Part shown: positions 7,253 through 26,626 of the stretch, piece after piece
Layout: every line of letters begins with the position of its first letter
How positions within the stretch are numbered: position 1 is the stretch's first letter
Assembly: GCA_040397685.1 (NCBI GenBank)
Contig: JBBAVM010000005.1
Location: 18,827-61,150, forward strand
Direction: 5' to 3'
Length of the DNA stretch: 42,324 bases
From: Pirellulales bacterium
Lineage (GTDB): Bacteria; Planctomycetota; Planctomycetia; Pirellulales; UBA1268
Program-made: the position numbers and the translations under genes
Notes under the pieces: generated by a model
Told to the model about the DNA's origin: nothing
The model's input: only the letters and a program-made list of their open reading frames with translations
The model's database searches: none

Positions 7253-7288
7253 GCACCGGCTCGGGACTGCCCAGCCCCGATCCTCCTC
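7253..7288 (+). repeat. Mini form of the CTCG-ended element (ends only), inverted relative to B1
   Basis: gcaccggCTCGggactgccc joined to agccccgatcctcctc, matching the two ends of element B1. Confidence 0.55.
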
Positions 7289-7298
7289 AACTGACAAT

Positions 7299-7451
7299 CG
7301 GGGAGGATCGGGGTTGTCCCCTGCCATTGAGACGGCGTATTTGACCAGCGGAGCCATGGATGGCGCAGCGCAGGCAAATCCGAGTGAGCCGAAGCCTGGA
7401 AGGCGAAGGCGAACGTCCGGCGAGATGGTAGGGGCGACCCCGAGCCGGCGC
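7299..7451 (-). repeat. Structured intergenic element, long type (copy B1)
   Basis: Reverse complement aligns over ~150 nt with 20707-20853 (ccggctcgggg..taccatctcgccggacgttc..ctgcgctgcgccatccatggct..atgg.agggg). Confidence 0.85.
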
Positions 7452-7494
7452 CTGCGAGTTGGTGCCTGCGAGCTGGGGGAACGACGGGTAGGAC

Positions 7495-7516
7495 GACAGG
7501 CTGAAGCCTGTCCTAC
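7495..7516 (-). repeat. GTAG-type REP-like palindrome (right unit of inverted doublet)
   Basis: gacaggctgaagcctgtcctac is the exact 22/22 reverse complement of 7211-7232. Confidence 0.8.
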
Positions 7517-7571
7517 AAGGCCGGTGGCTTGAAGGGGGGCGTAGAATCGAGCAACCCCTGGAGAACTCGCC

Positions 7572-8036
7572 ATGACCCAGAAAACGATCCTGTTTCCCAC
7601 GGACTTTTCCCACGCCAGCGACGCCGCGTTGCCCCATGCCGAGGCGCTCGCCAAGCAGGTGGCCGCGCGGCTGTTGATCGTGCACGTCGAGGAACCGCCG
7701 CTCGCGTACGGCGGCGGCGAACTTTACTACGGCATCCCGGAGCCGAGTTCCGCACGGATCCTCACGATGCTCGAGGACGTGAAACCCACCGATCCCGCGG
7801 TGCCCTTCGCCCACCGGCTGACGATGGGCGATCCGGCCGGGGAGATCATCAGGATCGCCGCCGAGGAGGGGGCCGAGATGATCGTGCTCGGCACGCACGG
7901 CCGCACCGGCATGACACGGCTCTTGATGGGGAGCGTGGCGGAGGCGATCGTGAGGCGTTCGCCCTGCCCGGTGCTCGTCTACCGGGAGACCGCGGAAAAA
8001 CTCGCGGCCCACCGGCCCGAACCCGTCCGGACCTGA
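7572..8036 (+). CDS. Universal stress protein (UspA family)
   Basis: ILFPTDFS, GDPAGEI, MIVLGTHGRTG...LMGSVAEAIVRRSPCPVLV; TAGAAT at 7542 and GGAG RBS. Confidence 0.93.
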   Translation: MTQKTILFPTDFSHASDAALPHAEALAKQVAARLLIVHVEEPPLAYGGGELYYGIPEPSSARILTMLEDVKPTDPAVPFAHRLTMGDPAGEIIRIAAEEGAEMIVLGTHGRTGMTRLLMGSVAEAIVRRSPCPVLVYRETAEKLAAHRPEPVRT

Positions 8037-8050
8037 GCCCCACCGCCCCG

Positions 8051-8992
8051 ATGACGTTGCGTCCGATCCTCGAACTCCGGGCCACCCTGCGGGCCCGACT
8101 GCGCGGCCTGTTCGACGATCGCGGGTTCGTCGAGGTCGAGACGCCGGTGATCTCGAGCGAGGTGCTACCGGAGGCGCACATCGATCCGCTGGCGGTGCAC
8201 CTCGACGGACCCGATCGCCCGCCCCACTTCCTGCAGGCGAGCCCCGAGGCGCACATGAAGCGGATGCTCGCCGCGGGCTCCGGTCCGATCTACCAGTTCG
8301 CCCGCGCCTTCCGCGCCGGTGAGCGAGGCGACCGCCACGACATCGAGTTCACGTTGCTCGAGTGGTACGCCCCGGGCACGGGCAATGACGACGCGGCCGC
8401 ATTGCTCGCGGAACTGTGCGCCGCCGCGCTCGGCACCGCCGGCCTCGAGCGGATCACCTGCCGCGAGGCCTTCCTGGCCCACGCCGGCATCGATCCGCTG
8501 ACGGCGACCCTCGCCGAGTGGAGGGCCGCCGGCGCCCGGGCCGGCCTCGCACTGCCCCAGGATCACGGCGACTCCTGCGATGCCTGGTTCGAGATCGTGC
8601 TGGCCGAGGCCGTGGCACCGCGGCTGGGCCACGGCCGGCCGACACTGCTGGAGGCGTGGCCCGTGTCACAAGCCGCCTTCGCCCGCATCAGCGTCGGGCC
8701 GCCTGCGACGGCCCGACGGTTCGAACTGTTCGCATCCGGGGTCGAACTCGCCAACGGCTGGGAGGAGGAAACCGCCCGCGAGCTGCTTCTCGAAAGGATC
8801 GCCGCCGCGAACACCGTCCGGGCCGCCGCCGGCCGGCAGCCCCTGCCCGTGCCAGGCCGACTCGTCGAGGTCCATGGGCCATCGATGCCGCCCGGGGTGG
8901 GCTGTGCCCTCGGCTTCGACCGGCTCGCAATGCTCGCCGCCGGAGCCGCGTCGATCGACGCGGTGCGTCCGTTCACCTCGCGGACGGCCTGA
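8051..8992 (+). CDS. epmA: EF-P lysine aminoacylase EpmA/GenX (class II LysRS paralog)
   Basis: F...GFVEVETP, LQASPE.HMKRMLAAG, FRAGE.G.RH..EFTLLEWY, RFELF..GVELANG, G.ALGFDRL; no anticodon-binding domain. Confidence 0.9.
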   Translation: MTLRPILELRATLRARLRGLFDDRGFVEVETPVISSEVLPEAHIDPLAVHLDGPDRPPHFLQASPEAHMKRMLAAGSGPIYQFARAFRAGERGDRHDIEFTLLEWYAPGTGNDDAAALLAELCAAALGTAGLERITCREAFLAHAGIDPLTATLAEWRAAGARAGLALPQDHGDSCDAWFEIVLAEAVAPRLGHGRPTLLEAWPVSQAAFARISVGPPATARRFELFASGVELANGWEEETARELLLERIAAANTVRAAAGRQPLPVPGRLVEVHGPSMPPGVGCALGFDRLAMLAAGAASIDAVRPFTSRTA

Positions 8993-24156: not shown

Positions 24157-24187
24157 GCTCGGGTCAATCCTTGTCGGGAGTGAGGAC

Positions 24188-24269
24188 GAGGCGAGGGGGT
24201 CGGCGAACGCTCGAGGAGCCTTGGGCCGCTGCGGCCCACGCGACGAGACTTTTGCCGCCCCCGAGCCGG
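24188..24269 (-). repeat. Structured intergenic element, short type (copy A2)
   Basis: gaggcgagggggtcggcgaacgctcgaggagc...gcgacgagacttttgccgcccccgagccgg shared with A1 and A3. Confidence 0.92.
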
Positions 24270-24284
24270 ACCATGCTCGCTGGA

Positions 24285-25481
24285 CTATCGCCGGGCGAGC
24301 GGGTGCGCGAGCGGCAGCCAGGCGCCGTCGGCCTTGCTCGACGCCACGGCCTGCTCGATGAAATACATCCCCTCCACGCCGTCGTGGATGTTGGGGTAGA
24401 TCGTGTCGGTGCGCTCGAACGGCTTGCCCGCGAGGGCGAGTTCCATCGCGTCGTAGGCGCCGCGGTAGATGTTGGCGAACGCCTCGAAGAACGCCTCGGG
24501 ATGCCCCGACGGGAGCCGACAGGCGGCCTTGCCCATGGCGTTCATGTAGGGCGCGTTCGGGTCGCGGGTGAAGATGCGGTGAGGCTCGCCGTTCTTGCGC
24601 ACGAAGAGCTGGTTGGGGTTCTCCTGGTGCCATTCGAGGCTGGCGAGCGTGCCGTCGATCTGGATCCGCACGTCGTTCTCACGGCCGTGGCTGATCTGCG
24701 AGGCCGTCACGGTGCCCAAGGCTCCGTTCTGGTAGCGGATCACGGCGTGTCCGTAGTCGTCGAGCGCCCGGGCCGGCTCGAAGATCTTGAGGTTCGCACT
24801 GATCTTCTCGGGCAGGAGCCCGGTCATGTAGCGGCCGAGGTTGTAGGCATGGGTGCCGATGTCGCCGAAGCAGCCGGCAGCGCCGCTCCGCTTCGGGTCG
24901 GTCCGCCAGGCGGCCTGCTTCTGGCCTTCCGACTCGAGCCTGGTCCGCAGCCAGCCCTGGATGTACTCGGCGCGGATCGCCTGGATGTCGCCCAACTCGC
25001 CCGAGAGGATCATCTCCCGCGCCTGCCGTACGAGCGGGTAGCCGGTGTAGTTGTGGGTCACGGCGAACACGACCGGTGCCTTCTGCACGATCGCGGCGAG
25101 GGCCTCCGCCTCGGCCAGCGTGAGCGTGAGCGGCTTGTCGCAGACCACGTTGAAGCCGGCCTCGACCGCGGCCTTCGCCACCGGGAAGTGCATGTGGTTG
25201 GGGGTGGTGACCGACACGAAGTCGATCCGCCGGTCGGCCGGCAGGGCCTTTTCCTTCGCCAACAACTCCTCGTAGGAGCCGTAGGCCCGCGTTTCGTCCA
25301 CGGCGTAGTCGGCGGCACTCGCCTTGGACCGGGCGGCGTCGCTCGAGAATGCCCCGGCCACGAGTTCGGCGCGGTTGTCGAGCACCGCCGCGGTCACGTG
25401 CACGCGGCCGATGAACGACCCCTGCCCGCCACCCACGATCCCCATCCGCAGTTTCCGGCCCAGCGTTCCGTTGGTCGCCAT
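24285..25481 (-). CDS. Gfo/Idh/MocA family oxidoreductase
   Basis: [60 protein letters not shown]. Confidence 0.92.
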
Positions 25482-25616
25482 GCTTCGTTCCTTCCAGGTC
25501 TCCGGCGTTGCCCAAAATCCGGACGGGAAGCCTAGCAGATGGCGAGCGGCCAGCCAGGGTCGCCGTCGGTTCGAGCAGGTTGCCGCCGCCCCCCGCGCGG
25601 CCCTACGATGCCGGTG

Positions 25617-26516
25617 ATGGGATTCTCCGACCGCGGCTACTACCGCCCCGAGCCGTCCAACGCCTTCCTCCAGGAATGGACGGGCGTGCTCACGATCATC
25701 GTCGCGAACATCGCGATCTGGGTCGCGAACCTTCTCGGCGCGGGCGAGGTGCCGGTCAATCGCTTTCTCGCGCTCGAGGGGGATCTCCCGCAGCACCTGC
25801 TCAAGGCCTGGGAACTCGTCACCTATGGCTTCGTCCACGACAGCCACAACCCGCGGCACCTCGTGTTCAACATGCTCGCGCTCTGGTTCTTCGGCCGCGA
25901 GGTCGAGGCAATCATGGGGCGGGCTGAATTTTTCCGCTTCTACGTCACCGCGATCGTGATCGCCGGCCTGGCCTGGCTCGTGAGCGTGCAGGTCGGCCAC
26001 CCGGTCCAGGCGGCGCGGTTCTCGCTCGTGGGTGCCAGCGGAGCCGTGATGGCGGTGCTCGCGGTCTTCGTGCTGAACTTCCCCCGCACGACCGTGCTCA
26101 TCTGGGGCGTGCTGCCCGTCCCGGCCTGGGCGCTCGGCATCCTGTATTTCGTCTCCGACGTGCAGGGAGCGGCCGCCGGGGGCGGCAATGTGGCCCATGT
26201 GGCCCACGTGGCGGGCGCGATCTTCGGCCTGCTCTACGCCTGGCGGGGCTGGCACCTCGGCGGCCTCGACGATCTCCTGTCCCGCTTCCGCCGGCGCCGG
26301 ATGCGGGTGCTGCGGCCGGAGGACGACTTTGGCACGCGACCGCGGCGGCCGGCCTCCGAGACGCGGCCCGCGGGAAAGCTCGATGCCGAACTGCAGGAGG
26401 AGGTCGATCGGATCCTCGAAAAGATCAGCCGCTCCGGTGAGGCGAGCCTTTCGACCGCCGAACGCGACACGCTCACCCGCGCCAGCCGCCGCCTCAAGGA
26501 AGGCTCGCGGTCCTAG
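25617..26516 (+). CDS. Rhomboid intramembrane serine protease with C-terminal helical domain
   Basis: W.LVTYGFVH, HLVFNM..LWFFG, GASG, AHVAHVAG; C-terminal EVDRILEKIS.SG..SL...ER. Confidence 0.92.
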   Translation: MGFSDRGYYRPEPSNAFLQEWTGVLTIIVANIAIWVANLLGAGEVPVNRFLALEGDLPQHLLKAWELVTYGFVHDSHNPRHLVFNMLALWFFGREVEAIMGRAEFFRFYVTAIVIAGLAWLVSVQVGHPVQAARFSLVGASGAVMAVLAVFVLNFPRTTVLIWGVLPVPAWALGILYFVSDVQGAAAGGGNVAHVAHVAGAIFGLLYAWRGWHLGGLDDLLSRFRRRRMRVLRPEDDFGTRPRRPASETRPAGKLDAELQEEVDRILEKISRSGEASLSTAERDTLTRASRRLKEGSRS

Positions 26517-26534
26517 AGCGCATCCAAGATAGTC

Positions 26535-26626
26535 GTGTCGCCGGCTCGGGGGCGGCAAAAGTCTCGTCGCGTGGGCCGTGGCGGCCCAAGGCTCCTCGAG
26601 CGTTCGCCGACCCCCTTCGCCTACCC
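26535..26626 (+). repeat. Structured intergenic element, short type (copy A3)
   Basis: gtgtcgccggctcgggggcggcaaaagtctcgtcgc...gctcctcgagcgttcgccgacccccttcgcct between convergent genes. Confidence 0.92.

Follow-up and report, generated by a model that had tools for sequence, protein, structure and literature searches.

Two families of intergenic hairpin repeats with a common basal helix in a genus of freshwater Planctomycetes

A stretch of 42,324 nt from an uncultured freshwater planctomycete of the order Pirellulales (assembly GCA_040397685.1, contig JBBAVM010000005.1, here C5:18827-61150; hereafter the window) carries five short intergenic elements, which self-comparison of the window resolved into two families, A (three copies, A1–A3) and B (two copies, B1 and B2). 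The bodies of the two families are unrelated, and the pair of ends that they share is one common basal helix. We take A and B to be bacterial repeats of a well-known type, in a variant that has not been described before; no publication describing either family was found in the literature, in a search that did not extend to supplementary tables. The reading that we favor, with a probability of roughly one half (0.5), is that both are non-autonomous, mobile hairpin DNA of the type of REPINs (hairpin-forming doublets of repetitive extragenic palindromes, REPs) or ERICs (enterobacterial repetitive intergenic consensus sequences), moved in single-stranded form by a Y1 (HUH) transposase acting in trans. 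Within this reading we are confident that the elements are mobile hairpin DNA, and only moderately confident of the single-strand Y1 mechanism.

Copies, distribution and orthologous spacers

The source of the window is a 3.46-Mb metagenome-assembled genome (MAG) of 207 contigs with 68.9% G+C and 91% completeness (G000), which was compared with other draft MAGs; the distribution of the repeats was followed through 16 genomes of the genus, 3 of other genera of the family and 12 of other families. An earlier note, made from the letters of the window without database searches, had described five elements with matching termini. All five are present where it placed them, as are the CTTCG variant in A3 and the diverged right end of B1 (CCCCGATCCTCC), but the units are longer than it drew them, with a tail of 10–26 nt past GCCT in A and, in many cases, a linker on the left of B. 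The A copies align over nearly their whole cores, directly (19031-19112 with 24188-24269, 91% identity) or inverted (19037-19118 with 26535-26616, 82 nt, 91%; 24194-24269 with 26541-26616, 76 nt, 97%), and B1 and B2 are connected by segments of 63 nt (7311-7373 and 20780-20842, 79%) and 31 nt (7411-7441 and 20715-20745, 87%). Similarity between A and B is terminal only (19024-19058 with 20822-20856, 35 nt, 74%). When the genome was searched against itself with BLAST, sequences with at least five copies made up 784 regions and 131,013 nt, or 3.8% of the genome. Exactly five of these regions fall in the window (7206-7518, 19021-19117, 20698-20881, 24185-24272 and 26537-26633), and all are intergenic, lying respectively between metG and a lysS-like gene, between a fucose-isomerase-like and an FGGY kinase gene, after the FGGY gene, between an oxidoreductase and an exonuclease gene, and after a rhomboid gene.

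BLAST of G000 with the five window copies, followed by merging of hits, gave 58 loci of A, among them 48 that are 70 nt or longer, and 270 hits of B, among them 170 that are 120 nt or longer. Family A consists of a core of ~82 nt and the 10–26-nt tail, which is weakly conserved (consensus CCCGyTyTGG); B is ~150 nt long, and the linker TCAACnCGCCCAAn precedes at least half of its copies as well as some copies of A. The 166 distinct B cores comprise three subfamilies, named B1 (97 cores, reading CCGGCTCGGGGTTGCCCC...), B' (41, CCGGCTCGTGACTGCCCA...) and B'' (28, CCGGCTTCGGGCTCCCC...), and B and B' are frequently arranged tail to tail. The analysis supports the suggestion of the earlier note that these are non-autonomous, high-copy, intergenic elements whose common ends are not due to chance. 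Its proposal that one pair of ends carries several cargos fared less well: a strict search of G000 for hairpins of the form CCGGC...GCCT returned 104 copies of B and 8 unrelated chance hits, and therefore not many cargo families on these ends, although this search was ungapped and blind to A, whose arms are bulged. A loose hairpin search with 13-nt arms gave 1236 hits distributed evenly over all lengths, which were discarded as background.

Every one of the 16 genus genomes carries both families. B was also found in one of the three other genera of the family and in none of the 12 genomes of other families, and A in none of these 15 other genomes. Because A is restricted to the genus and B reaches beyond it, A is the younger family. 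Contigs of other MAGs that match B are titled Planctomycetota, Planctomycetia or Pirellulales and come from lakes or fresh water; some bear evidently automatic labels, e.g. Candidatus Kuenenia.

Orthologous spacers were found empty, filled, or filled in the other orientation depending on the species. Between the fucose-isomerase and FGGY genes, G001 and G004 are empty with abutting stop and start (TGAC-ATG), G015 and G011 are empty with spacers of about 20 nt, and neither ccgg nor cctcccc is present in any of these four. The same spacer holds A in G000, A in reverse orientation in G006 and G007, variants in G012 and G010, another repeat in G009 and G014, and short unrelated sequence in G002 and G008; in G005 the contig stops at the stop codon. 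A2 is inserted between two genes that in most relatives overlap by their stop and start codons, and its site is empty in 11 of 13 relatives, with genes overlapping or abutting (CAT-CAG...), and filled as in G000 only in G007, with different flanking letters. The spacer after the rhomboid gene is empty in G015 and G008 and contains B in plus orientation in G011, B in minus orientation in G006, B'' plus B' in G001, R plus B plus B' in G003 (R and S are companion repeats described below), and an A variant with another apical stem in five more distant species. At a locus between convergent genes on contig C43, a copy of A is common to G000 and G007, G015 has an 18-nt spacer, and the remaining relatives have R, S or another family. 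After FGGY, each species carries a B-type element, with differing subfamily and context. These comparisons show that short spacers gained elements repeatedly and independently.

A local frame test placed all but 25 of the 48 A loci and all but 98 of the 170 B loci relative to their neighboring genes. The placeable loci lie mostly between tandem genes (19 for A, 56 for B), with 3 and 7 between divergent and 1 and 9 between convergent genes, respectively. Between tandem genes, the strand of the element in the sense of the mRNA is random (11:8 for A, 25:31 for B), which argues against a sense-specific role within mRNAs.

The shared ends form one basal helix

Within the terminal stem of each copy (GGC-TC-GGGG ... 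CCCC-TC-GCC), the left and the right CTCG face each other, and the resulting TC/TC mismatch is a tandem G.A on the complementary strand, hereafter the GA strand. In the 104 B copies of the strict search the two facing dinucleotides are TC/TC (39), TC/GA (22), GA/TC (11), TT/AA (28) or other (4), and never GA/GA. These states include fully paired forms, and the dinucleotides therefore behave like the two sides of a helix rather than a crossover core; the paired forms are the outcome that would be expected from correcting one arm against the other. Pairing of CTCG against CTCG recurs deeper in the B stem (ATCTCGCCGG / CCGGCTCGAT) and in the inner B hairpin (GCCTCGGCC / GGCCTCGGC). Across MAGs, the terminal 2x2 of 50 B copies reads GA/GA in 30, TC/GA in 7 and TT/AA in 4. 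The pair just outside the mismatch in the 30 GA/GA copies is C-G in 13, G-C in 7, T-A in 5 and unpaired in 5; because this closing pair co-varies, the helix continues through the mismatch. The outer ccgg and cctcc are a genus-specific version of this co-varying closing stem.

Pooling the B subfamilies gave a poor RNAalifold consensus, and alignments were consequently made by subfamily and across MAGs. The cross-MAG alignment contains 50 copies, i.e. the two of the window and 48 with sufficient flanks, drawn from at least 112 matching stretches. In the fold that it shows, a three-way junction joins a long basal stem to two hairpins. RNAalifold predicted 38 pairs, 23 of them with compensatory change, and three closing pairs were added by hand. 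In the resulting 41-pair structure 93.3% of 2036 cells pair, compared with 79.6% in shuffled and 33–44% in slid alignments, and 25 of the 41 pairs are changed on both sides; none of 500 shuffles reached any of the five measures used, although cell counts overstate the number of independent events because the copies are related, a caution that weighs against our reading. The stretches GAnCGTCCGGCGA and AGCGnAGnCA-GGATGnCGnAGCG are unpaired and invariant. Family A folds as a bulged hairpin in which 8 of 25 pairs are changed on both sides (e.g. G-C to A-T in 10 of 47 copies) and whose apical stem varies between species. Some A copies have an extra hairpin of 22–25 nt at one fixed point (after ...AAAGTC; Table 1), pointing to a mini-insertion nested there or to an additional, variable arm.

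The two strands of the elements do not fold equally well. Folded as DNA, B1 reaches -39 kcal/mol on the plus strand (z -4.2) and -30.5 on the minus strand (z -2.0), while z is -4.8 for B2 on both strands and -1.2 to -2.5 for A1 and A3. The RNA folding energy is lower on the GA strand, for B in 164 of 166 copies and for A in 38 of 39. Because the energy model's reward for G.A accounts for part of this difference, a strand-neutral structure with G.U forbidden was used to count wobbles in G000: G.T pairs on the GA strand and on the other strand number 206:78 for subfamily B1 and 31:14 for B''. Across MAGs the ratio for B is 96:33. The strand asymmetry is real for most of B.

Companion repeats, candidate enzymes and competing explanations

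A k-mer survey of G000 revealed further repeat families, including R and S. R (GACAGGCT-TGAA/TTCA-AGCCTGTC) is the commonest repeat, with 944 matches on both strands or about 470 loci, and S is a 27-bp hairpin with 243 arms. R lies within 80 nt to the left of 69 of 156 B copies and to the right of 4; S lies to the right of 54 of the 156, at a nearly constant 7–8 nt from GCCT, and to the left of 1. A is solitary, with unique DNA on either side in 42 of 47 copies. The S stems share GCGAGGG/CCCTCGC and CTTCGGGC/GCCCGAAG with the termini of A, B and B''. In the relatives, stop codons of convergent genes are frequently provided by the GTAG or CTAC of R, or overlap with it. Logan contigs of four DNA runs, compared with window positions 7100-27000 in a search for empty-site alleles within the species, were broken at the repeats, and the joints arose through cross-mapping between copies of R and B.

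The earlier note had found no cognate enzyme in the window, which our analysis supports. In the genome as a whole, two genes matched the Y1 transposase domain PF01797, on contigs C39 and C29. The gene on C29 (166 aa, within the locus C29:3062-4571) has the class-3 signature (HHVH, WT and YIAECQ, i.e. Y....Q) and sits between S arrays (ACGGAAGCCCGAAGCGCAAGCGAGGGA and its complement) with a CGGA foot. This motif set and the flanking S hairpins fit the description of class-3 TnpAY1 genes in PMC6006769, and next to the class-3 homologues of G004 and G005 stands a variant of S. The motif GAACGTCCGG near these two homologues was rejected as a partner signal, being a chance occurrence inside coding sequence. 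A class-2 RAYT (REP-associated tyrosine transposase) in G010 has R arrays on both sides in the textbook REP-RAYT arrangement; a class-2 RAYT of this type was not found in the G000 assembly, and in G011 and G009 the hairpins beside the class-2 RAYT are other ones with GTAG. R and S therewith have plausible Y1 partners, and A and B have none. On contig C85 of G011, the REP hairpins at the RAYT gene read GTAGCGACAGGCC-TCC-AGGCCTGTCG, and their loop and stem top GGCCTCCAGGCC resembles the inner hairpin of B, GGCCCTCCAGGCC, a possible link of B to a RAYT system.

In the mechanism that we propose, the basal helix as read on the GA strand, 5'-GGC GA GGGG...CCCC GA GCC-3', with its two or three closing pairs, tandem G.A mismatch and G4-5/C4-5 stem, would be the handle recognized by a trans-acting enzyme. 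Elements would be copied into short intergenic spacers while single-stranded, and the most likely enzyme would be a tyrosine transposase of the Y1 (HUH) group, either a RAYT or a class-3 protein, with the role that it has in REP/REPIN systems. A tentative extension, which we hold possible but doubtful, is that the basal helix with its tandem G.A is a portable handle on which unrelated bodies ride (the genus-restricted A and the older, wider B), modular in the manner of REPINs and exchanged between families, and that the junction nucleotides of B may also serve the host.

Several observations weigh against the favored reading. A and B flank none of the Y1 genes that were examined in the genus, and no enzyme tied to either family was found. 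The C39 gene (C39:19582-20253, 224 aa), which is RAYT-like at 62 bits and thus below the 80-bit NCBIfam cut-off, has inverted repeats of its own at its borders, richer in AT (AAAAGGTGTCAGG... / ...TGACACCTTTT), as do nine relatives in the genus (AAAAGGTGACAGCCACCAAATTTGGGCAA); A, B or R are not found there. The sole repeat match near these 10 loci is one S-like word ~575 nt downstream of the G000 gene, and this type of gene looks like a separate small Y1 element. PF01797 was detected in 11 of the 16 genus genomes and not in G006 and G008 (94% and 96% complete), both rich in copies, and the class-3 protein in 5 of 16 and not in the B-bearing G018; such absences are weak evidence since the genomes are draft MAGs. 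Neither A nor B has a conserved foot of the GTAG or CnGA kind. The GTAG inside the right arm of B was considered as a REP foot and rejected, as the T, A and G positions of GGTAGGGG are only 41–74% conserved; across MAGs the position reads GnGA and is base-paired. The wobble asymmetry is absent from A (19:18) and B' (20:22), and orientation relative to local GC skew is biased in B too weakly to be of use (76:48, p about 0.015) and unbiased in A (19:19). Lastly, 9-nt repeats in the flanks of some A copies point towards staggered-cut insertion.

These flank repeats bear on the possibility that A and B are classical MITEs (miniature inverted-repeat transposable elements), i.e. internally deleted derivatives of DDE insertion sequences (IS) whose ends are terminal inverted repeats and whose movement is double-stranded with staggered cuts. 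Their imperfect terminal inverted repeats of 12–31 nt and sizes of 85–150 nt would suit such an origin, and the longest word common to both 45-nt flanks is 9 nt at 3 of 48 A copies compared with 1 of 232 shuffled pairs. At A2 (CCATGCTCG) and at the C43 copy (CGGTAGCGC) the element has one repeat directly at its CCGG end and the second one after its tail; at the third copy, on C6, neither abuts the element. The C43 repeat is, however, 9/9 in G000 and only 5/9 in the orthologous G007 copy, 70 copies of B and 15 of A showed no duplication at any fixed offset, and flanking repeats were not in excess among 163 copies of B. Nor did any B arm pair in G000, the one genome searched in this way, enclose a gene-sized unique segment; three pairs of arms 2.3–6.3 kb apart lie at separately listed B copies. 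Co-variation in the interior and one better-folding strand are, furthermore, not required of a site for a double-stranded transposase, and we regard a MITE origin as quite improbable. The site-specific recombinase model preferred by the earlier note, in which A and B are passengers of an IS110/IS1111-like or tyrosine recombinase with a CTCG crossover in the fixed target ccggCTCGcctcccc, draws on CTCG being present on both sides in the commonest form of both families (39 of 104 B and 23 of 47 A copies). Many B copies nevertheless carry CTCG/CGAG (33 of 104) or TT/AA (28 of 104), and across MAGs the letters beyond the mismatch show the co-variation of a helix. The empty orthologous sites lack the supposed target, so that ccgg and cctcccc belong to the element, as the earlier note had itself said would follow from such sites. 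The predicted empty site, the 13-mer CCGGCTCGCCTCC, occurs three times in G000, each time in unique, coding-looking DNA, and no DEDD transposase (IS110, PF01548) was found in this 91% complete genome. The empty sites refute the CTCG core-and-target model, and we give passengers of such a recombinase almost no weight.

The earlier note also offered a structured RNA, and structured RNAs or mRNA modules (stabilizers, processing sites or protein-binding decoys) maintained by host function, with the GA/GA loop and the unpaired stretches as protein or tertiary contacts, are a further explanation to be weighed. Strong covariation, the three-way junction with invariant unpaired stretches across many MAGs and the bias of G.U wobbles to one strand would all be expected of an RNA, and the earlier proposal was right about the structure, in which the apical parts can be exchanged and the closing stem holds a conserved 2x2 loop, although the strand that folds better is the one with GA/GA. 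Sequence conservation can be cited on the same side: the A core at the C43 locus is identical in 81 of 82 positions between G000 and G007 compared with 88% for the whole 1.5-kb locus, and non-orthologous A copies are 94–99% identical between species whose flanking genes are 78–92% identical. This identity reflects either constraint or gene conversion, or else recent copying from conserved masters. Against an RNA, orientation to flanking genes is random, and presence, orientation and family differ between species within one spacer, which favors mobile DNA. No Rfam family reached its gathering score in the window, the hits on one A and one B locus being at chance level (E 0.66–0.85), and no T-run follows the hairpins in the five window sequences as read by eye, so they are not classical terminators. 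We therefore consider host RNAs unlikely, and retain mobile hairpin DNA as the favored reading. Lineage restriction, polymorphism of site and orientation, flanks owned by the element, a conserved fold and a mismatch within a co-varying helix are observed directly, as are the families and their copy numbers.

Features of the window and comparison with known systems

The elements and their immediate neighbors are listed in Table 1. Four other features of the window lie apart from A and B. A 12-nt tandem repeat (16003-16143) is coding, a 126-nt periodic repeat (16483-16912) falls in the region of a WD40 gene (minus-strand frame 15919-17328), and a coding repeat at 22279-22403 is lysine-rich, of KKAAKE type. 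The open frame at 2393-7192 comprises 1599 aa with MetRS domains only from residue 908, and the 900 codons at its start may belong to another gene or to a shadow frame of the high-GC sequence.

Table 1. Repeat elements and associated features in the window, and A copies with an extra hairpin
Feature	Position	Strand	Remarks
R hairpin, GTAG-tagged REP-type palindrome (GTAGGACAGGCTTCAGCCTGTC)	7211..7232	+	Left edge of the 7206-7518 repeat mosaic
B' subfamily remnant, head CCGGCTCGGGACTGCCCAG fused to tail CCCCGATCCTCCTCAAC, no interior	7256..7291	+	By comparison with aligned B' copies
B1, family B copy	7300..7448	-	CCGGCT... orientation on minus; GA-mismatch strand is plus
R hairpin with GTAG and CTAC feet	7488..7516	+	Right edge of the repeat mosaic
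A1, family A copy	19021..19112	-	Core 19031-19112, tail 19021-19030; between fucose-isomerase-like gene (end 18982) and FGGY kinase gene (start 19142)
B2 left linker (CCGCGTCGCCCAAC)	20693..20706	+	Variant of the TCAACnCGCCCAAn extension
B2, family B copy, CCGGCT... orientation	20707..20853	+	14 nt past FGGY stop codon
S-type hairpin arm (CGGAAGCCCGAAGCGCAAGCGAGGG)	20856..20888	+	Adjoins B2 right end
9-nt direct repeat CCATGCTCG, left copy	24153..24161	.	Flanks A2 insert
A2, family A copy	24162..24270	-	Core 24188-24269, unique 26-nt tail 24162-24187
9-nt direct repeat CCATGCTCG, right copy	24271..24279	.	Flanks A2 insert
A3, family A copy	26541..26633	+	Core 26541-26622 (right side CTTCG), tail CCCGCCCTGG; ~25 nt past rhomboid gene stop codon
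A copies with extra hairpin	G000 C93:2115-2219 and C25:33527-33633; G007 A2 site; G010 after rhomboid gene		

The repeat set accounts for ~3.8% of a small, 3.5-Mb genome and occupies many of the short spacers between its housekeeping genes. Such repeats break MAG assemblies and may be mistaken for RNA genes or regulatory sites, and annotation gains from defined families A and B (with B' and B'') and their partners R and S. If the basal helix does act as a handle, it would provide, for planctomycete Y1 transposases, which have been little studied, a simple and testable recognition element, and an example of how new REPIN-like families arise, with the handle kept and the body replaced.

The closest known systems are the REP, REPIN and BIME (bacterial interspersed mosaic element) repeats of Enterobacteria and Pseudomonas, which are associated with RAYT (TnpA-REP) Y1 transposases (PMC3116915, PMC3337134, PMC3733652). 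Like these, A and B are high-copy, GC-rich, intergenic and hairpin-forming, are lineage-restricted through a whole genus and vary in position by species; B shares polar mosaics with palindromic repeats of other families, R to its left and S to its right, and RAYT genes with GTAG hairpin flanks exist in the same genus. The stems of A and B are kept by compensatory change and tolerate GA mismatches, and unpaired GA residues likewise occur in long REP stems (PMC3733652). Compared with REPs, A as a bulged hairpin of 82 nt and B as a three-way junction of 150 nt are much larger and more complex, and they have no conserved GTAG or CGTC foot, whereas the neighboring R has such a foot. A RAYT gene with A or B at its sides was not found, although draft MAGs may hide one, and it is likewise unlike REPs that one basal helix is common to two unrelated bodies.

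Class-3 Y1 genes are accompanied by high-copy atypical secondary structures and have been described mainly from Planctomycetes and Acidobacteria (Quentin, Siguier and Chandler 2018, PMC6006769). The likeness here is that G000 encodes such a protein and that S, which shares words with the termini of A, B and B'', adjoins a third of the B copies; the difference is that the structures flanking the gene are S rather than A or B, that A and B have no CnGA foot, and that the gene is present in only 5 of 16 genomes.

Two further groups resemble A and B in general form. Correia/NEMIS and MITEAba12 are MITEs, and A and B share with them the lack of autonomy, terminal inverted repeats, a length of 100–150 nt and a position next to genes; unlike MITEs, A and B have no consistent target duplication and no parent IS that we could find in G000, and they have a conserved interior fold and a strand asymmetry. 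ERICs, or IRUs (intergenic repeat units), are imperfect palindromes of ~127 nt in Enterobacteria and Vibrio (Proteobacteria). A and B are set beside them by description rather than by sequence, on account of the size class, the long, branched, imperfect palindrome and the intergenic location; unlike ERICs, they have a conserved tandem G.A and belong to a dense set of mosaic repeats.

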